Below, piece after piece: positions 6,332-44,877 of a DNA stretch of 64,000 bases. Source of the DNA: a virus; IMG/VR virus record IMGVR_UViG_3300042566_002057, positions 1 through 64,000 of that record; one strand, written 5' to 3'. The notes under the pieces are model-generated. The model made no database searches, was not told the origin of the DNA, and saw nothing but the letters and a program-made list of their open reading frames with translations. How positions within the stretch are numbered: position 1 is the stretch's first letter; the number at the start of each line of letters is the position of its first letter. The translations under genes and the position numbers were made by a program.

Positions 6332-6384
6332 TAAATTTGGTAGAATTAAAACTTTTATCTAATTTTGTATAAAATAATGACAAA
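6332..6384 (+). promoter_or_regulatory. Bacteroidota-type promoter; 53-nt block repeated identically at 19826-19878
   Basis: TTTG 6336-6339, 20-nt spacer, TAATTTTG 6360-6367; AATATATA follows at 6401. Confidence 0.8.
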
Positions 6385-6415: not shown

Positions 6416-6517
6416 ATGACAACAAATCGCACACATAAACATTTTAGTAAATCGAGCAAGTGGTTTAGCACCCAGTTCGGTACTGAAAAAGTATTGCGTG
6501 ATTTGACTACACTATAA
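6416..6517 (+). CDS. attenuator leader peptide 1, MTTNRTHKHFSKSSKWFSTQFGTEKVLRDLTTL (Phe/His/Trp, also Lys/Ser)
   Basis: 33-codon ORF before a terminator and the Phe/His/Phe/Trp tRNAs; AGTTCGG 6474-6480 is complementary to the terminator 5' arm. Confidence 0.85.
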   Translation: MTTNRTHKHFSKSSKWFSTQFGTEKVLRDLTTL

Positions 6518-6542
6518 GTAGTAAAATTAAATACAATATTTA

Positions 6543-6578
6543 AGGTCCGAACTCAAAAAGTTCGGACTTTTTTGTTTT
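6543..6578 (+). terminator. attenuator terminator 1
   Basis: AGGTCCGAACT-CAAAA-AGTTCGGACTT plus T-tract, directly upstream of tRNA-Phe. Confidence 0.9.
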
Positions 6579-7063: not shown

Positions 7064-7099
7064 ATGAAAAAGAAAATGGAAACTAAACGAAAACGTTAA
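7064..7099 (+). CDS. putative Lys leader peptide MKKKMETKRKR
   Basis: 11 codons with 5 Lys, followed directly by a hairpin (7100-7129) and three Lys tRNAs. Confidence 0.65.
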   Translation: MKKKMETKRKR

Positions 7100-7143
7100 G
7101 TGATGGCTTACTAAGTTATAAGTCATCACATCGGAAAAATTAT

Positions 7144-7227: not shown

Positions 7228-7315
7228 GCACCTATGGCTCAATTGGTAGAGCATCGCACTTTTAATGCGAGGGGTAGACGTAAGTCCGTTGAAGGTTCGA
7301 GTCCTTCTGGGTGCA
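7228..7315 (+). tRNA. tRNA-Lys(TTT) with long variable arm
   Basis: TCGCA-CTTTTAA-TGCGA; extended variable region containing GAC-GTAA-GTC. Confidence 0.85.
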
Positions 7316-7321
7316 CTAAAT

Positions 7322-7407: not shown

Positions 7408-7534
7408 GGGGATGTAGCTCAGTGGTAGAGAAAACTATCTCTTTTGAAATTTTACCTCGTGAGAGTGTTGATTGAAAGAGTTACTTCGTATATTTGAAAT
7501 TATAAGGTCGTGGGTTCGAATCCCACCATCCCCA
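7408..7534 (+). tRNA. tRNA of uncertain identity with a ~56-nt structured insertion after the D-arm
   Basis: Canonical GGGGATG/CATCCCC acceptor, D-arm and T-arm; insertion at about 7431-7487; irregular anticodon arm around TTGAAA. Confidence 0.65.
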
Positions 7535-7575
7535 CAAAAAGAAAAAGAAAAAATTAATATATAAAAAATAAGATT

Positions 7576-7650
7576 ATGAAAACTATTATGTCAACATCGA
7601 AAAGTTCTAGTCGCTCGTCAAAGATGAGGGAGGTTCGATCGTATTCATAA
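7576..7650 (+). CDS. attenuator leader peptide 3, MKTIMSTSKSSSRSSKMREVRSYS (Ser/Arg)
   Basis: 9 Ser and 3 Arg in 24 codons; GAGGGAGGTTCGA 7626-7638 pairs with the terminator 5' arm. Confidence 0.88.
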   Translation: MKTIMSTSKSSSRSSKMREVRSYS

Positions 7651-7673
7651 TAGTCATAATAAGATATTGTGTT

Positions 7674-7709
7674 AACCCTCGAACCTAAAGTTTGAGGGTT
7701 TTTTGTTTT
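7674..7709 (+). terminator. attenuator terminator 3
   Basis: AACCCTCGAAC-CTAAA-GTTTGAGGGTT plus T-tract. Confidence 0.9.
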
Positions 7710-7713
7710 ATAT

Positions 7714-7787
7714 AGTTCCATAGTTTAATTGGATAAAACACCGGATTACGGCTCCGGAGATTGAGGGTTCGAGTCCTTCTGGAACTA
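7714..7787 (+). tRNA. tRNA-Arg(ACG)
   Basis: CCGGA-TTACGGC-TCCGG. Confidence 0.9.
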
Positions 7788-7793
7788 CAAATT

Positions 7794-7880
7794 GGAAAAG
7801 TAAGAGCAGTTGGTCTAAGCTCGGCGGTCTTGAAAACCGTAGGCCCTAGTGGTGTGTGAGTTCGAGTCTCACCTTTTCCG
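7794..7880 (+). tRNA. tRNA-Ser(TGA)
   Basis: GCGGT-CTTGAAA-ACCGT; long variable arm; G73. Confidence 0.88.
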
Positions 7881-7885
7881 CAAAA

Positions 7886-7969
7886 GGAGAATAAACTAAT
7901 CTGGTGATTAGGACCGCCTGCTAAGCGAGTCGTACTTTATAGTATGGGGTTCAATTCCTCTGTTCTCCG
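7886..7969 (+). tRNA. tRNA-Ser(GCT)
   Basis: CTGCTAA loop; long variable arm; G73. Confidence 0.82.
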
Positions 7970-7975
7970 CTATTT

Positions 7976-8061
7976 GGAGAGTAAACTGATGAGGTCATCA
8001 GCCACGCCTGGAAAGCGTTGGGTGCGTTCAATCGTATGGGTTTCGAGTATTCTGCTCTCCG
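7976..8061 (+). tRNA. tRNA-Ser(GGA)
   Basis: CACGC-CTGGAAA-GCGTT; long variable arm; weak T-stem. Confidence 0.78.
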
Positions 8062-8070
8062 CAAAAATGA

Positions 8071-11000
8071 TTACACAACACCAGTTATTATACCACCAGT
8101 AACAGTAACTATTTGACCATCTGCACTAAATGTTCCTGTCCATCCACTTGATACCGCTGAATCGACATAACCTTTAGTAACAAGTGAGTAAGTAGAAAAA
8201 TTAGCGGTATAATCATCTGTATATACCAGTCCCTTTTGATTAGCATCTGTGACTAATAATCTATTGTCTGAACTTCCATCATTTATATTCTGATCGATAT
8301 TTGTAATTAATATACCAGTAGATAATGATCCATCAAATGCAAAAATTGATGTACTTTGGTTATCTACAAAGACCCTCGAATATGTAGATGAGTCATATGT
8401 TACCTTTAAGTCTATAGCTGTGCCAAAGTTGTATATTCTTGACTCATTCAAGTTATTGTAGACTTTGTTATCAATAAATACAGAAGCTGTCACTGAAAAT
8501 CTTCCTAAGTTATTGATATAAAAGTTCTTTAGATCTCCTTCAATAAAAACTTGTGATGTAAGTGTTCCACCTAATTCAATATTTCCCGAAATACTTTGTG
8601 TTAGACCATTTTCACCCTGAACTTTTTGTGAATCAACATATCCTTTAGTTACAAGTGAATAAGTTGTGAAGTTTCCTACATAATTACCATCATAAACAAT
8701 ACCTTTATTATTGATATTATCAACAACTATTAAAGTGTTATTTATCGAACCATCTGAAATTGCTTGAGATCCAGCATAAGTACTAATAATGCTACTATAT
8801 GTACCAACTCTTGATTCTATTTTAATAGTGTCCATCTCACCTACTAAACCGGATCCCGTTACACCAGGAGCTCCATATATGAGCAAACCACCTGAAATGT
8901 CATGTGCTAAAAATCTAAGTGTGTTAGGACCATGTATCAAAAGTGTTGAACTATTTAAAAATTGTGATCTTGATGAGAAATAAACACTCGAAGTTAATGA
9001 AATTCTAGATGCGCCTAAAAAATGCAAATTTTTGTTGTCTACTTGAACAGTTGTATCTTGAGAAAGTGTTCCACCTAGTCCAATCACTCCTGATGATACA
9101 TAACTTAGACCATTTCCTGGTGTAGTAGATGAAATTGAATCAACATACCCTTTAGTTACAAGTGAATAAGTAGTGAAATTTGCAGTATAATCAGATCTAT
9201 ATACTATACCCTTCTGACTAATATCATCAGCTACTATAATTCTATTATTTGTTGATCCATCGCTTAATGGTTGGTCTTGTGAGTGAAAATTTATTCCAGA
9301 GTATCCAACACCATCAAAATTATATATATTTAATACTCCTGGTGTAATATCTACAATTGAGTAAGTTCCACTAGGATCATCAACTCTAGTATAGTAATTA
9401 TCACCATCATTCCACTGTGCACTAGTATTTGTGGATGGAGAAAAAACTGTATTAACTATAAAAGCTGAAGCTGTGACTGAAAATCTACTAAAATCGTTAA
9501 AATATACATTATTATCATAACCGTCAATAATCACTGGTCCACTTAGAGTTCCTCCTAAACCAATGTATCCTGAACTAAAAGTAAGACCATTATTTACATA
9601 TTGTTGTTTTTCATCAACATATCCTTTAGTAACTAATGAGTAAGTAGTAAAGTTTGGAGAATAATCTCCAACATATACTATTCCTTTATTTGATACATCT
9701 GTGACTAATATATTATTATCCGATGAGCCATCACCAATTGGTTGTGTTTCGTTATGAACTGTAATAGACGATACTCCGTTATTACCCACACTTTCAATAT
9801 TTATTGTACCAATATTTATTCTTGTTCTAGAATAAGTTGCATTATCAATTGTTGCTACTATGTTTTGGTAATCAGCTTGTTGTAAATAAACTTGACTATA
9901 ATAATCAGATGATATAACTCTATTATCTATGTTGTTAGATGCGGTCATTGTAATTCTGTATGCATCTGATATCTCTAAATCATATCCCTGTCCATAGATA
10001 ATTGTATTTAGTGAAAGCACACCACCTAATCCAATTTTATTATCAGTCTGTGACAGACCATTCATCGCATCACTAACAATAGTTTGTTCAGAACCAGAAA
10101 GTCCTGCATTCCAGTATTGAGATGAAGAACTCCAGAATATTTTAGAATAAGTTCCATCTCCTAAATTAACTTCAATTCCAGCATCAATTGCTGGTCCGCT
10201 ATATGTTCCATTAAGAGTTATAAAATTATCCTCGACAACAAGATTTTCTGTATAAATTGTTGATGTAGTTCCTAAAATAGCTAAGTCACCTAAGATAGTA
10301 ACAGAGTCATTAAACTGTCTATTACCATCAATTATGGATTTAAGTGAAACTTGATTACTTCCATTTAATTCAATTGACGTATTATCTACTTGTGATAAGA
10401 AATTACTATCTACATAATTCTTATCTATTAATGAATAAGTAACAAAAGTAGCTGAGTAATCAAATGCGTATCTTAGTCCTTCTAAGTTTCCGGATATAAC
10501 TGTTGAGTTACCGAAATTCAAATTAAATACACTTGGTGAGTAAATAATCAAATCACTTGTATTCATATCAATATATGTCTCTGAAATAGAACCATTATTT
10601 GTTGATATTACGACATTACCACTTGTAAATCCTTCATCTAAGTATATTCTACCACCACCATTACCACTAACTAAAGATGTACCAGTACCCATTACTATAT
10701 TTTGACCCAACGAATCATTGCCCTGAGTTAGTACTTGTTCCAATGTTGGTGTTGTAGAGGCTGGGGCCGTTCCCCAGTAAGCTTGACCAGCACCATCTGT
10801 TAACAATACTTCTGATAATGAACCATCAACATTTGGTAGTTTATAAGCATTATTTATATTAACACTGTTACCTAAATAAACTGTATTTGATTCAGTAGCT
10901 GATAAATTCACACCTCCAATAATAACACTATTATAGATTCCTGATTCAATGAATGCTGACTCAGATGAAATTGATGTTATCGGTGACTGAACAGCTGGTG

Positions 11001-11895
11001 TAGTTGAATAAGTAGTAGTATCTCTTACTAAAATACCATTTTTCCCAGTTAGGTGAGTAGATGAACTAGTTGATGAAAATATACCAATAATTGAGTTTGA
11101 TAAAAATGGTTTGTCTGTTGCTAAAATAACATCATTTGCACTATTAAACTCTAATAAGCCATATCCAGCACCTGATTTAATTCTATCACCATCTTTAATA
11201 ACTAACTGAGGAACATAAACTGTATTATTCTCATCTGCTATCATATCACTTCCTCCAATAATAACTGAGTTTGCTATTCCACCATATGTTGTTGAATTAT
11301 AGCTATTTAAATGTAAACTTGATTTATTAAGAGAACCAATGTCATATGTTGATTCTGATTTTATTATATCAATTTGACCAGAAAGTAAAGATGTATCATT
11401 TAGTGTCACATAATATGAATTCGGTGTGATATTTTGTACACTATAAATGGTTAAGTCTCCTACTCGATTGTTAATACTAATTGAATTTAAGTCAATAGTT
11501 GAAGCAGTATTACTTGTTAAATCAGTCATACTTATTGAAATTTCACCAAGACTTTGCTTGATACTATTTAAACCAAAGTAAGTACCATCATTAGTACTTA
11601 TCTCTAAGGCAGATGTTCCAAAATTAATTTGATTATTGCTTCCAGATGTAATAAGTGAGGTATTAGAACCCATCTCAATAGAGTAGGTTCCAGTGGATGA
11701 ACCCACTTTAAGAACATCTAAAAGTGATGGAGTCGCTGAGATTCCTGCAGTTCCACCAACACCGATTTGTATTATTGTACCGGAAGTATCTTTTTGTTTA
11801 AGAAAGCCATCTAAATCATAACCTATTATCCAACCCTGTGAAGGAGTTGCTGCGGTTGTCATCGAAACGGTAGATCCAAAATTTATAGTGCTCAT
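8071..11895 (-). CDS. long repetitive tail-fibre-like structural protein
   Basis: 1274 aa, Ser/Thr/Gly/Asn rich; five YxxNFTTYSLVTKGYVD-type repeats alternating with NGL...IGLGGTL; upstream AATATATA. Confidence 0.7.
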   Translation of the reverse strand: MSTINFGSTVSMTTAATPSQGWIIGYDLDGFLKQKDTSGTIIQIGVGGTAGISATPSLLDVLKVGSSTGTYSIEMGSNTSLITSGSNNQINFGTSALEISTNDGTYFGLNSIKQSLGEISISMTDLTSNTASTIDLNSISINNRVGDLTIYSVQNITPNSYYVTLNDTSLLSGQIDIIKSESTYDIGSLNKSSLHLNSYNSTTYGGIANSVIIGGSDMIADENNTVYVPQLVIKDGDRIKSGAGYGLLEFNSANDVILATDKPFLSNSIIGIFSSTSSSTHLTGKNGILVRDTTTYSTTPAVQSPITSISSESAFIESGIYNSVIIGGVNLSATESNTVYLGNSVNINNAYKLPNVDGSLSEVLLTDGAGQAYWGTAPASTTPTLEQVLTQGNDSLGQNIVMGTGTSLVSGNGGGRIYLDEGFTSGNVVISTNNGSISETYIDMNTSDLIIYSPSVFNLNFGNSTVISGNLEGLRYAFDYSATFVTYSLIDKNYVDSNFLSQVDNTSIELNGSNQVSLKSIIDGNRQFNDSVTILGDLAILGTTSTIYTENLVVEDNFITLNGTYSGPAIDAGIEVNLGDGTYSKIFWSSSSQYWNAGLSGSEQTIVSDAMNGLSQTDNKIGLGGVLSLNTIIYGQGYDLEISDAYRITMTASNNIDNRVISSDYYSQVYLQQADYQNIVATIDNATYSRTRINIGTINIESVGNNGVSSITVHNETQPIGDGSSDNNILVTDVSNKGIVYVGDYSPNFTTYSLVTKGYVDEKQQYVNNGLTFSSGYIGLGGTLSGPVIIDGYDNNVYFNDFSRFSVTASAFIVNTVFSPSTNTSAQWNDGDNYYTRVDDPSGTYSIVDITPGVLNIYNFDGVGYSGINFHSQDQPLSDGSTNNRIIVADDISQKGIVYRSDYTANFTTYSLVTKGYVDSISSTTPGNGLSYVSSGVIGLGGTLSQDTTVQVDNKNLHFLGASRISLTSSVYFSSRSQFLNSSTLLIHGPNTLRFLAHDISGGLLIYGAPGVTGSGLVGEMDTIKIESRVGTYSSIISTYAGSQAISDGSINNTLIVVDNINNKGIVYDGNYVGNFTTYSLVTKGYVDSQKVQGENGLTQSISGNIELGGTLTSQVFIEGDLKNFYINNLGRFSVTASVFIDNKVYNNLNESRIYNFGTAIDLKVTYDSSTYSRVFVDNQSTSIFAFDGSLSTGILITNIDQNINDGSSDNRLLVTDANQKGLVYTDDYTANFSTYSLVTKGYVDSAVSSGWTGTFSADGQIVTVTGGIITGVV

Positions 11896-13560: not shown

Positions 13561-13633
13561 CGCGGGGTGGAGCAGTCGGTAGCTCGCTAGGCTCATAACC
13601 TAGAGGTCACACGTTCGAGTCGTGTCCCCGCTA
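13561..13633 (+). tRNA. tRNA-fMet(CAT)
   Basis: CGCGGGGTGGAGCAG start; C1 mismatch; CTCATAA loop. Confidence 0.92.
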
Positions 13634-13700
13634 CTAAAAAAATAAAAATAAATTTGGTAGATTAAAAAAGTCTACTTATATTTGTAAAACAATTAAAGAA

Positions 13701-13778
13701 ATGATGACAACAGTTGCAACATATTATTATGAGGTCGAGAGCAAAAGCTCCGTCAGACGAGTATTAGTTATGTCGTAA
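13701..13778 (+). CDS. attenuator leader peptide 4, MMTTVATYYYEVESKSSVRRVLVMS (Tyr/Glu)
   Basis: TAT TAT TAT GAG GTC GAG; GTCAGAC 13752-13758 pairs with GTCTGAC of the terminator; promoter TTTG 13653 / TATATTTG 13677. Confidence 0.88.
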   Translation: MMTTVATYYYEVESKSSVRRVLVMS

Positions 13779-14448: not shown

Positions 14449-14526
14449 ATGAAGAATTTACTTAACATATCAGCATTTATAGCGAACGGCGCGGGGAGTG
14501 ACCGTAGTTGGCTGGTTGTTATGTAA
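14449..14526 (+). CDS. attenuator leader peptide 5, MKNLLNISAFIANGAGSDRSWLVVM (Ile-ATA/Ala/Gly)
   Basis: ATA TCA GCA TTT ATA GCG AAC GGC GCG GGG; TGGCTGG 14509-14515 pairs with CCAGTCA of the terminator. Confidence 0.85.
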   Translation: MKNLLNISAFIANGAGSDRSWLVVM

Positions 14527-19918: not shown

Positions 19919-20032
19919 ATGAGAACAAATAATACAAATATGATGAACCTGACACTCAATGTGGTGAATATTACGTTATGTAATATTAGACCGTCTGAGG
20001 GTTCCTTCCTATTTAGAAAATTTGTCTCGTAA
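19919..20032 (+). CDS. attenuator leader peptide 6, MRTNNTNMMNLTLNVVNITLCNIRPSEGSFLFRKFVS
   Basis: Codons 1-24 use only M,R,T,N,L,V,I,C, the amino acids of the 14 downstream tRNAs; TCTGAGGGTTC 19994-20004 pairs with the terminator 5' arm. Confidence 0.92.
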   Translation: MRTNNTNMMNLTLNVVNITLCNIRPSEGSFLFRKFVS

Positions 20033-20110: not shown

Positions 20111-20195
20111 CGGTAGGTACCCGAGCGGTCTTCAGGGACCAGTCTGATACACTGGGTGAGAAATCACAACGTGGGTTCAAATCCCACCCTACCGA
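20111..20195 (+). tRNA. tRNA-Ile(GAT) with long variable arm
   Basis: CCAGT-CTGATAC-ACTGG; variable hairpin GTGA-GAAA-TCAC. Confidence 0.82.
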
Positions 20196-20203
20196 CAAAA
20201 TAT

Positions 20204-20373: not shown

Positions 20374-20462
20374 GGGCTTGTAGCTGATTTGGTTTTAGCT
20401 GGTGACTGTTAATCACTGTATGAAAAATTGAAATAAAGTAGGTTCGAATCCTACCTGGCCCG
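20374..20462 (+). tRNA. tRNA-Asn(GTT) with long variable region
   Basis: GGTGA-CTGTTAA-TCACT; G73. Confidence 0.78.
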
Positions 20463-20468
20463 CAAATC

Positions 20469-20871: not shown

Positions 20872-20990
20872 AATAATGGATGGTGATTGCAAGGGTTACT
20901 TCGTTTAATGACTAAACAATTGACTTTTAATCAATCTACACTGGTTCGATCCCAGTAGTATATCACTCTTCAAGGCTTTCCTCCGTTATT
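20872..20990 (+). ncRNA. tRNA-Lys(TTT)-like core embedded in a structured element, no normal acceptor end
   Basis: D-like arm, ATTGA-CTTTTAA-TCAAT and ACTGG-TTCGATC-CCAGT, flanked by TGATTGCAAGGGTTACTTCG and ACTCTTCAAGGCTTTCCTCC. Confidence 0.6.
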
Positions 20991-35309: not shown

Positions 35310-35405
35310 ATGACAACAATTAACGTAAATATCGCACAAGTTAACCCGCAACCTCAGGATCAGGATCGTGAGAGAGTGGCTAACTATGTCTTTACAATAA
35401 GTTAA
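35310..35405 (+). CDS. attenuator leader peptide 7, MTTINVNIAQVNPQPQDQDRERVANYVFTIS (Gln/Pro/Asp)
   Basis: CCG CAA CCT CAG GAT CAG GAT; GTGGCTAACT 35376-35385 pairs with GGTTAGTCAC 35435-35444; promoter TTTG 35219 / TATCTTTG 35243. Confidence 0.9.
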   Translation: MTTINVNIAQVNPQPQDQDRERVANYVFTIS

Positions 35406-35759: not shown

Positions 35760-35842
35760 TGTGGAGTCGGCTAATTGGCAGGCCACCTGACTTTGAATCA
35801 GGGAGATAACACTCAGTGTAGGTTCGAGTCCTACCTCCACAA
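35760..35842 (+). tRNA. tRNA-Gln(TTG) with long variable arm
   Basis: CCTGA-CTTTGAA-TCAGG. Confidence 0.82.
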
Positions 35843-35849
35843 CAAAAAA

Positions 35850-35937
35850 CTAGGTGTGTAGGCAATTGGAAGCCGACCTGATTTGGGGTCAGGAATGAAC
35901 ATAAAGTTCTATGTGGGTTCGAGTCCCACCACTTAGA
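35850..35937 (+). tRNA. tRNA-Pro(TGG) with long variable arm
   Basis: CCTGA-TTTGGGG-TCAGG; GAAC-ATAAA-GTTC variable hairpin. Confidence 0.82.
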
Positions 35938-35943
35938 CAAATT

Positions 35944-43731: not shown

Positions 43732-43804
<73 letters not shown>

Positions 43805-43839
43805 CTAAAGAAAAACGTTCTTTGATTTATTGATTTTAC

Positions 43840-44715
43840 AGATTCTTTGACTTCGGTCATTGATGAATGTAACGGCCGCTTATGGTCGATAAATAAACCT
43901 CGAAAGGGGGATAAAGTGGATACAAAAGCTAATTGTATCTGCGTCTTGAGAGTTCTTCGGAACAATTGAGGTCGAGTAAGCAAGTGGGGCACCACAAGTT
44001 CTGAGTAGTCGAGGGTAACACTGTAGACCAAATGAGTTTGTGACTGGGCAATTGTAGATTGTTCAGTTGACTTCGGAAGAGGAATAGGAATAACCCATAG
44101 GAATTTTGTAAGAAATAAAGACTCACCGGTTTTTACTATTGCGAGTTCCAACTCAAAAGGTGTCTTAAAGTTGAAAGACAATCAGTCGTACAGGTGGTGC
44201 TGTTGACTGACACTAATCTCTCTACCAAGAGAGTAGATAAACCGAAAGGTAAGTCGTGGTGAAGATATCTTGAAGAGTTGTGATGGAGGCATCACACGGA
44301 GTAGTCCAGTATTCTTGAGACCAAAAGTTTTGAGAGCTGAGAGGTGACCACTACTTCGACATATCTACTAGCACTAAATTTCTAACTGTTAATTGGAAAC
44401 ATTTAAAAAATAAGAAATCGAAAGTGTTACCTAGTTACTGATGAAAGGTACCTACTTAGTCGTGAGTGTTCACGGCCACTGAAGCTCGAAAGGCTGACGT
44501 GATTTCATCGAAAAACTTATAGAGGGTCGAACCTCGAATCAGCTCGCAAGGTTGAATAAGCGGATTAAATGGAGAGTAAACAGTAACTCAAGAAGTGGTT
44601 AGTCTAACTAACCGGTACTGACAGAATACTACTCAAAAGGTAGTGGATAAGAAGGGAAACAATAATCCAACTAAAGTTCTGTCGCCATAGGATGTAATCT
44701 CAGTCCTTTTTTTTT
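43840..44715 (+). ncRNA. large structured ncRNA, probably GOLLD-like
   Basis: About 870 nt without a plausible + strand ORF; GC-richer; many GNRA/TTCG hairpins; flanked by tRNAs; ends GGATGTAATCTCAGTCC + T9. Family assignment is from memory only. Confidence 0.65.
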
Positions 44716-44719
44716 ATAT

Positions 44720-44793
44720 GGTCGGTTCGTCTAGCGGTTTAGGACGATAATCTTTTCAGATTAGAAACAGAGGTTCGAATCCTCTACCGACTA
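44720..44793 (+). tRNA. tRNA-Glu-like with 8-nt anticodon loop
   Basis: Glu-type body; ATAAT-CTTTTCAG-ATTAG. Confidence 0.65.
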
Positions 44794-44877
44794 CGAGTTT
44801 TCGTAGTGGTTAACTTATCCTCTAAACAGAGGGGTCTGTCTCAGAGACAGGGTGGATACCCAACTCCACACTAATAT

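Follow-up and report, generated by a model that had tools for sequence, protein, structure and literature searches.

A predicted Ser/Arg leader-peptide attenuator ahead of tRNA genes in a huge phage

Leader-peptide attenuators have been described for amino-acid operons, among them trpL, hisL, pheL and leuL and the multivalent thrL and ilvL (mechanism summarized in PMC1183508). Judging from its sequence, an element of this type appears to stand ahead of a group of tRNA genes in the window, i.e., the whole analysed stretch of 64,000 nucleotides of viral DNA (IMG/VR record IMGVR_UViG_3300042566_002057, positions 1 to 64,000). As in the trpL/hisL class, a short leader ORF with a putative regulatory codon run is followed by an apparent intrinsic terminator, which is situated between the ORF and the first structural gene. 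In modelled folds, the antiterminator would use the 5' arm of this terminator, an upstream segment could sequester the antiterminator strand, and the stop codon is placed so that a terminating ribosome would mask the same strand. More than one amino acid would be sensed, as by thrL and ilvL, and the putative sensor codons are rare, as are the CUA codons used by leuL of enterobacteria.

The differences from these systems concern mainly the genes under control. These are four tRNA genes, whereas biosynthetic enzymes or a synthetase would be expected in the trpL/hisL class. Unlike in amino-acid attenuators, the output itself would decode the sensor, providing direct feedback on tRNA supply with discrimination between isoacceptors (UCR, AGY and CGY), and the element is encoded by a phage, probably one infecting a Bacteroidota host. 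Because the controlled genes are tRNA genes, the element would work like leader-peptide attenuators and yet be a variant outside any described leader family. An Rfam search of positions 7540-7713 at E values up to 1 gave no match to leader families (Thr_leader, His_leader, Trp_leader, Leu_leader and others), the T-box or tRNA.

The pheM leader of E. coli pheST (phenylalanyl-tRNA synthetase) is a leader-peptide attenuator of a component of the translation apparatus, as may be the case here, but there the output is the synthetase itself, the sensor responds to a single amino acid and the gene is cellular. T-box riboswitches, about 200-300 nt in length, resemble the element in that the choice between terminator and antiterminator is made by the state of a specific tRNA. 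They have no ORF and bind uncharged tRNA directly, by means of Stem I with a specifier codon in its loop, the conserved T-box sequence and an antiterminator bulge to which the 3' end of the tRNA pairs (RF00230), and these features are absent here.

Phage tRNA genes are commonly taken to be expressed either constitutively or according to the stage of infection. In Anabaena PCC 7120, the trn operon is a long stress-inducible tRNA array under the repressor TrcR (PMC8421152, PMC10272220). Its accessory tRNA genes are silent and are switched on when translation is impaired, as is proposed for the genes considered here; it differs in being controlled at the promoter, with direct repeats bound by an RHH repressor, and in responding to a global, not codon-specific signal. 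PMC8421152 nowhere uses the terms attenuator, leader or terminator. In a full-text literature search, whose coverage was incomplete and which leaves absence unproven, leader-peptide attenuation was found described for amino-acid genes and not for tRNA genes. The Anabaena trn/TrcR system, with its protein repressor and global signal, is the only inducible tRNA array found in print.

Leader ORF, sensor codons and downstream tRNA genes

With pattern scans of IMG/VR and of a metagenome collection, the number of distinct versions of the element rose to 42, found in two phage genomes of more than 630 kb, in IMG/VR contigs of up to 476 kb and in metagenome contigs. The window belongs to a huge lake phage. 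Closest to it among deposited sequences are LR745206 and LR756502 (uncultured phages of 634 kb and 642 kb), which are among the largest megaphages and come from a Japanese subsurface sample and a French lake (PMC9723777). Both carry the same unit of ORF plus terminator ahead of tRNA-Arg(ACG). The element is single-copy in each of the four huge-phage genomes searched (385-642 kb). A second viral pattern, AGTCGCTC...GTGARRTTCGA, yielded mostly chance matches in GC-rich contigs, only L015 and L021 being real, and L009, obtained with the first pattern, was a chance match as well. The coordinates of the element, of the tRNA genes behind it and of the sibling leaders are collected in Table 1.

Table 1. 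Features of the Ser/Arg element, the tRNA genes downstream of it and the sibling leaders in the window
Feature	Position	Strand	Evidence or remark
Leader ORF, 24 codons, tandem stop TAA TAG	7576-7653 (coding 7576-7650)	+	Intact in 42 of 42 distinct homologues
Sensor run, codons 6-15: TCA ACA TCG AAA AGT TCT AGT CGC TCG TCA	7591-7620	+	Ser/Arg codons 8 of 10
Region 1, ACATCGAA; predicted partner 7634-7642; would sequester the antiterminator strand without a ribosome	7594-7601	+	Modelled folds
Hairpin P1, TCGCTCGT / ATGAGGGA; last three sensor codons in its 5' strand; candidate pause hairpin	7611-7631	+	RNAalifold
Region 2, antiterminator 5' strand AGGTTCGA, inside codons E19-V20-R21	7631-7638	+	8-bp helix with 7679-7686
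Intrinsic terminator, 11-bp stem 7674-7684 / 7690-7700, loop CTAAA, T run 7699-7709	7674-7709	+	Hairpin prediction
tRNA-Arg(ACG), begins 4 nt past the T run	7714-7788	+	ARAGORN and Rfam, 65 bits
tRNA-Ser(TGA)	7794-7881	+	ARAGORN and Rfam, 51 bits
tRNA-Ser(GCT)	~7885-7969	+	Relaxed ARAGORN only; tRNA-Sec model 44 bits (cut-off 47); cloverleaf fold
tRNA-Ser(GGA)	~7975-8061	+	Relaxed ARAGORN only; cloverleaf fold; gene called in most relatives
Sibling leader	6416-6517		Ahead of Phe/His/Phe/Trp tRNAs
Sibling leader	7064-7099		Ahead of three Lys tRNAs; hairpin ~7101-7131 without T run
Sibling leader	13701-13778		Ahead of Tyr/Glu/Tyr tRNAs
Sibling leader	14449-14526		Ahead of Ile(TAT)/Gly/Ala tRNAs
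Sibling leader	19919-20032		Ahead of at least 13 tRNA genes: Ile, Arg-TCT, Leu, Asn, Val, Thr and others
Sibling leader	35310-35405		Ahead of Gln, Pro and two Asp tRNAs

The leader ORF translates as MKTIMSTSKSSSRSSKMREVRSYS, and the untranslated stretch upstream of it is A/T-rich and has no Shine-Dalgarno sequence. An earlier note on this DNA, made from the letters alone, had pointed to a run S-T-S-K-S-S-S-R-S-S that samples the Ser and Arg codons TCA, TCG, AGT, TCT and CGC; this run is present as described, with Thr and Lys codons breaking it up. The accompanying statement that the sampled codons can all be decoded by the downstream tRNAs holds for the run itself and fails for codon 18, an AGG outside the run, which none of the four tRNAs reads.

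To judge whether such a composition could be due to chance, the leader was compared with all ATG-started ORFs of 20-40 codons in the contig (152 kb, six frames, 477 ORFs). The four tRNAs behind the element can read 48% of the codons of the leader ORF, which is the maximum and is unmatched by the other ORFs (mean 8.7%). Stretches of ten codons with at least 8 readable ones are found only twice among 303,842 in the same contig. In the long ORFs of the phage, CGC and TCG occur at only 0.1 and 3.1 per 1000 codons, respectively, so the sensor prefers codons that these ORFs avoid. The pattern is maintained among relatives: each of the 42 homologues has at least three UCR, at least two AGY and at least one CGY codon before the antiterminator, and 41-68% of the codons in this part are readable by the downstream tRNAs, compared with the genome background of 8.7%. 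UCY codons, which are read by Ser(GGA), are missing from 19 of the 42 leaders, although the Ser(GGA) tRNA is downstream.

The ATG lies 33, 36, 39, 45 or 63 nt from the AGTCGCTC anchor, a multiple of three in every homologue, while all lengths between 28 and 36 nt occur in the spacer that separates the stop codon from the terminator (counts by remainder modulo three 20/11/11). Since all the indels within the ORF are multiples of three and the spacer is free of this limitation, it may be concluded that the reading frame of the leader is constrained and that the ORF is probably read as codons. Runs of Ser codons grow and shrink in frame, from 3 to 9 consecutive codons, and one group of homologues has a 30-nt in-frame duplication in the ORF. 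Codon 15 alternates among the versions between TCA and AGT, which have no base in common and yet both encode Ser. Part of the invariance of CGC and TCG could come from hairpin P1 and not from codon choice.

High conservation of nucleotides, synonymous sites included (AGTCGCTC, TTCGA and TAATAG), together with several conserved helices, would also be expected of an RNA-only switch which binds a tRNA or a protein directly, in the manner of a T-box or of protein-mediated antitermination, the ORF being incidental. This explanation is very improbable in our opinion, because the exclusively in-frame indels and the expansions of Ser runs argue for translation, the Rfam search of positions 7540-7713 at E up to 1 retrieved neither the T-box nor a leader family, and the element, of about 130 nt, is shorter than a T-box and would have to sense four isoacceptors.

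The translated product itself may be considered as well, i.e., the ORF may encode a functional Ser/Arg-rich micropeptide, with the hairpin merely ending its mRNA. It is hardly conceivable that this is so: the C-terminal half of the peptide (SEVR-L/S-Y/C-S) is indeed conserved, but its conserved codons coincide with RNA helices, the N-terminal half is of low complexity and variable in length, and the tRNA genes immediately behind the terminator lack a promoter of their own. A decayed tRNA was also considered, since GGTTCGA resembles the T arm of a tRNA, and no model supports it.

In nearly all relatives, genes for Arg(ACG) and Ser tRNAs come next. Automatic calling placed Arg(ACG) and one to four Ser tRNAs directly 3' of the element at 38 of the 47 loci; the L005 group begins with a tRNA of the Ser(TGA) type. 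The Ser(GCT) and Ser(GGA) genes of the window have an unusual architecture consisting of an 8-bp acceptor stem, a 6-bp D stem, a 4-nt D loop, a T stem of 4 bp and an extended variable arm. Comparison with relatives shows compensatory changes in the D stem (CTAATC/GATTAG, CTGATG/CATCAG and CTACTC/GAGTAG). Ser(GCT) scores best on the tRNA-Sec model and has a tRNA-Sec-like shape, and the form of both genes resembles that of the 8/4 'allo-tRNAs' from metagenomes.

Directly upstream of the Ser/Arg leader, here as well as in L007 and L015, a 128-nt tRNA-like gene is located (7408-7535). Its acceptor stem, D arm and T arm are normal, and an insert of about 55 nt surrounds the anticodon arm. With the tRNA model of Rfam the gene reaches 45 bits, and with the tmRNA model 31 bits, which is below the cut-off of the latter. 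Its motif GTTACTTCG is also present in L001 (near position 1770) and in a second tRNA-like gene of odd form (20893-20966).

RNA helices and the proposed switch

The terminator stem (7674-7700) is followed by TTTTGTTTT, and each of the 42 homologues has a T run preceded by a terminator hairpin, the energies of which range from -13.5 to -25 kcal/mol. Region 3, TCGAACCT (7679-7686), belongs to the 5' arm and loop of the terminator, is common to both folds and is the exact complement of AGGTTCGA (7631-7638). The earlier proposal that a segment of the leader pairs with the terminator was confirmed by these two stretches, the pairing of which is exact and has been kept by compensatory changes.

Bases a2-a9 of GAGGTTCGA form the antiterminator helix with eight bases beginning at TCGAAC. 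Over the 42 sequences it is 95% paired, and this value falls to 54% or less when the partner is slid by one column. Pair a4:t6 is G-C in 31 homologues, A-U in 6 and G-U in 5, with no broken pair and no A-C; A at a4 is always accompanied by T at t6 and is found with no fewer than three types of peptide. Pair a3:t7 is G-U in 21, G-C in 13 and A-U in 4 homologues and mismatched in the remaining 4, and a2:t8 is mismatched in 12 of 42. The helix is short, with six invariant base pairs and two or three variable ones. None of 500 shuffles matched the observed pairing or covariation score of the antiterminator, and since the homologues are related, these counts overstate independence. A base change in the 5' arm of the terminator is matched in its 3' arm (TCGAAC...GTTTGA versus TCGAAT...GATTTGA). 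Being mirrored in both the 3' arm and the antiterminator, this change means that three segments co-vary.

Covariation was scored by motif-anchored counts and by alignment to a covariance model, the latter being fitted to the tested helix and somewhat biased. In MAFFT alignments, the columns of the terminator come out misplaced for sequences with an additional T in the 5' arm, and for this reason RNAalifold recovered only part of the terminator. In the RNAalifold consensus, P1 has covarying pairs (GU23/GC10/AU4 and UA27/AU7); in the alignment to the covariance model, 97% of helix 1 is paired. The antiterminator lies 21 nt from AGTCGCTC in 41 of the 42 homologues, whereas the length upstream varies. 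Bases of the conserved AGATATT spacer are predicted to pair with the stop-codon region within the modelled antiterminator fold.

The effect of a ribosome was modelled by masking a footprint assumed to extend from -15 to +12 nt around the A site and by folding the transcript cut before the 3' arm of the terminator. With the ribosome at the Arg codon or two codons earlier, the antiterminator formed in all 42 homologues, and with the ribosome at the stop codon it formed in none. A codon-by-codon scan gave the same border in 42 of 42, the antiterminator being permitted up to the last Ser of the run and blocked at all later codons, including the stop. Minimum-energy folds of the full-length transcript invariably show the terminator, even with a stalled ribosome masked, and the antiterminator is far weaker; the switch must therefore be kinetic, as in classical attenuators. 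A switch based on thermodynamics alone was rejected, as full-length folds with a stalled ribosome keep the terminator and switching appears only in the truncated transcript.

In modelled ribosome-free nascent transcripts, the antiterminator strand was paired with the upstream sensor region in 39-40 of 42 homologues, with a partner that varies among them; in a longer truncated-transcript fold, also ribosome-free, the antiterminator formed in 38 of 42. The default state in the absence of a ribosome is model-dependent. The upstream pairing is predicted to give the four-segment layout of the trp leader, though the upstream partner is not the same in all versions.

The earlier note had interpreted this locus as a Ser/Arg attenuator, and those of its predictions that could be checked in the sequence were borne out by our analysis: an ORF held in frame, matching codons, the terminator and the covarying antiterminator helix, the modelled geometry with nearly constant spacing, and linkage to tRNA genes. 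It is likely, in our opinion, that the element is a ribosome-mediated (leader-peptide) transcription attenuator gating a phage tRNA operon. Against this speak the shortness of the antiterminator, the UCY codons missing from some leaders, the Thr and Lys codons within the run and the want of a promoter belonging to this cassette in the window. Translation of the leader in vivo, coupling of transcription with translation and a response to slow decoding are parts of the model that we infer.

According to this model, RNA polymerase would transcribe the leader, and a ribosome would begin to translate it. When Ser and Arg(CGY) codons are decoded fast, the ribosome would move past codon 15 to the tandem stop and cover AGGTTCGA, the terminator would fold, and transcription would stop 4 nt before tRNA-Arg. 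A ribosome lingering at codons 6-15 would keep region 1 open and leave AGGTTCGA free to pair with TCGAACCT as soon as the latter emerges, pre-empting the terminator, and the polymerase would read into Arg(ACG), Ser(TGA), Ser(GCT) and Ser(GGA). With no ribosome on the leader, the sensor region upstream is predicted to sequester AGGTTCGA, and termination would be the default. Thus, the phage probably makes its Arg and Ser tRNAs only when ribosomes read the sensor codons slowly. Since the products are the tRNAs that read these codons, the supply of charged tRNA would be under negative feedback.

Sibling cassettes, promoters and the sensed signal

Seven leaders, including the one discussed above, were found in the window (Table 1). 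Each consists of a micro-ORF and a downstream hairpin, and most of them hold a segment complementary to the 5' arm of the hairpin. Several siblings share the start ATGACAACA and a common 5' UTR, and for this reason they look paralogous. At one sibling (6498-6576), Rfam gave only a weak match to Thr_leader (20.7 bits, E 0.65). When leaders were assigned to tRNA clusters by codon-level decodability, the true assignment was the unique best of 5040 permutations, and each of the seven leaders scored highest on its own cluster (column z at least 1.9). The match extends to the level of isoacceptors, with CGC at 7576 going together with Arg(ACG) and AGA at 19919 with Arg(TCT).

A promoter motif of Bacteroidota type (TTTG, 17-23 nt, TAnnTTTG) is enriched in the window (18 occurrences versus 5.2 expected), and the host of the phage is probably a member of the Bacteroidota. 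Such motifs are located ahead of sibling cassettes at 6336, 13653, 19830 and 35219, and none was found between 6367 and 13653 in the search of the window. It follows that the Ser/Arg cassette is third in a series, behind the Phe/His/Trp and Lys cassettes, the nearest motif being that at 6336. An internal promoter in the conserved AGATATT spacer was rejected on the same ground. Eight relatives have a TAnnTTTG-type motif of their own just upstream of the leader. The 4 nt between the terminator and the first tRNA leave no room for a promoter, nor is there room for one at this place in the relatives, so the tRNAs can be transcribed only by read-through.

The last points have to be considered together with another explanation of the hairpin, namely that it is a constitutive or leaky terminator, an insulator between tRNA sub-operons, or a hairpin for processing or stability, the small ORF being irrelevant or serving only for ribosome loading. 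In the relatives, where the promoter is upstream of the leader and the tRNA lies a few nucleotides past the T run, a constitutive terminator would silence the operon. This explanation also provides no role for the frame constraint, the Ser/Arg codons, the covarying antiterminator and the fixed spacing, nor does it predict the 1-in-5040 match of leaders to clusters. It is quite improbable, even though the terminator is strong, the antiterminator is weak, and the element of the window, which follows Lys tRNA genes, could simply end that unit.

Attenuation by the translating ribosome being the preferred reading, the nature of the signal has to be discussed. The mechanism may be the same and the signal may be amino-acid supply or general translation stress, as in starvation or late infection, the extra tRNA then acting as a timing device and not as feedback. 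It was established for the trp and his attenuators that an attenuator cannot tell low tRNA from low charging, and in Anabaena the stress-inducible tRNA array is switched on whenever translation is impaired, whatever the cause (PMC8421152). Nevertheless, this variant seems unlikely: extra tRNA does not relieve amino-acid starvation, and the match of seven cassettes to their own clusters per isoacceptor is predicted by sensing of tRNA species and is superfluous for a general stress response.

Several other features of the window should be mentioned. Two tRNA-Met(CAT) genes (13561-13634 and 43732-43805) have a promoter motif but are not preceded by a leader cassette. This would be consistent with a function as initiator tRNAs, since a ribosome stalled in elongation gives no information on the supply of such tRNAs. 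Long variable arms of 10-17 nt were found in tRNAs for Lys (7228-7316), Ile (20111-20196), Asn (20374-20463), Gln (35760-35843) and Pro (35850-35938), each adjoining a copy of normal length with the same anticodon; to our knowledge, such arms are not expected in bacteria for these five tRNAs. GOLLD RNA was identified at 44297-44706 (Rfam RF02032, 299 bits), with a tRNA-like gene directly after it (44720-44794). On the minus strand, a 1274-aa ORF (8071-11895) converges on the tRNA operon. It has at least five repeat copies ending in ...TYSLVTKGYVD, and its product looks like a fibre or adhesin.

Summarizing the data on the Ser/Arg leader and its six siblings, we are inclined to believe that the phage gauges the decoding of UCR, AGY and CGY codons for each isoacceptor and transcribes its Arg and Ser tRNAs only when this decoding is slow, all seven elements together making up a codon-resolved and self-correcting supply. 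A codon-matched attenuator ahead of each tRNA block would mean that the expression of phage tRNAs is driven by demand. This design bears on the question of why tRNA genes are carried by phages and of when they come into use. If the model is true, such a supply system could also answer the depletion or cleavage of host tRNAs during infection. It would extend attenuation, a textbook mechanism, to a new class of targets, the decoder itself, and the element, being small (about 135 nt) and self-contained, could be used as a natural sensor that reports how available each isoacceptor is.
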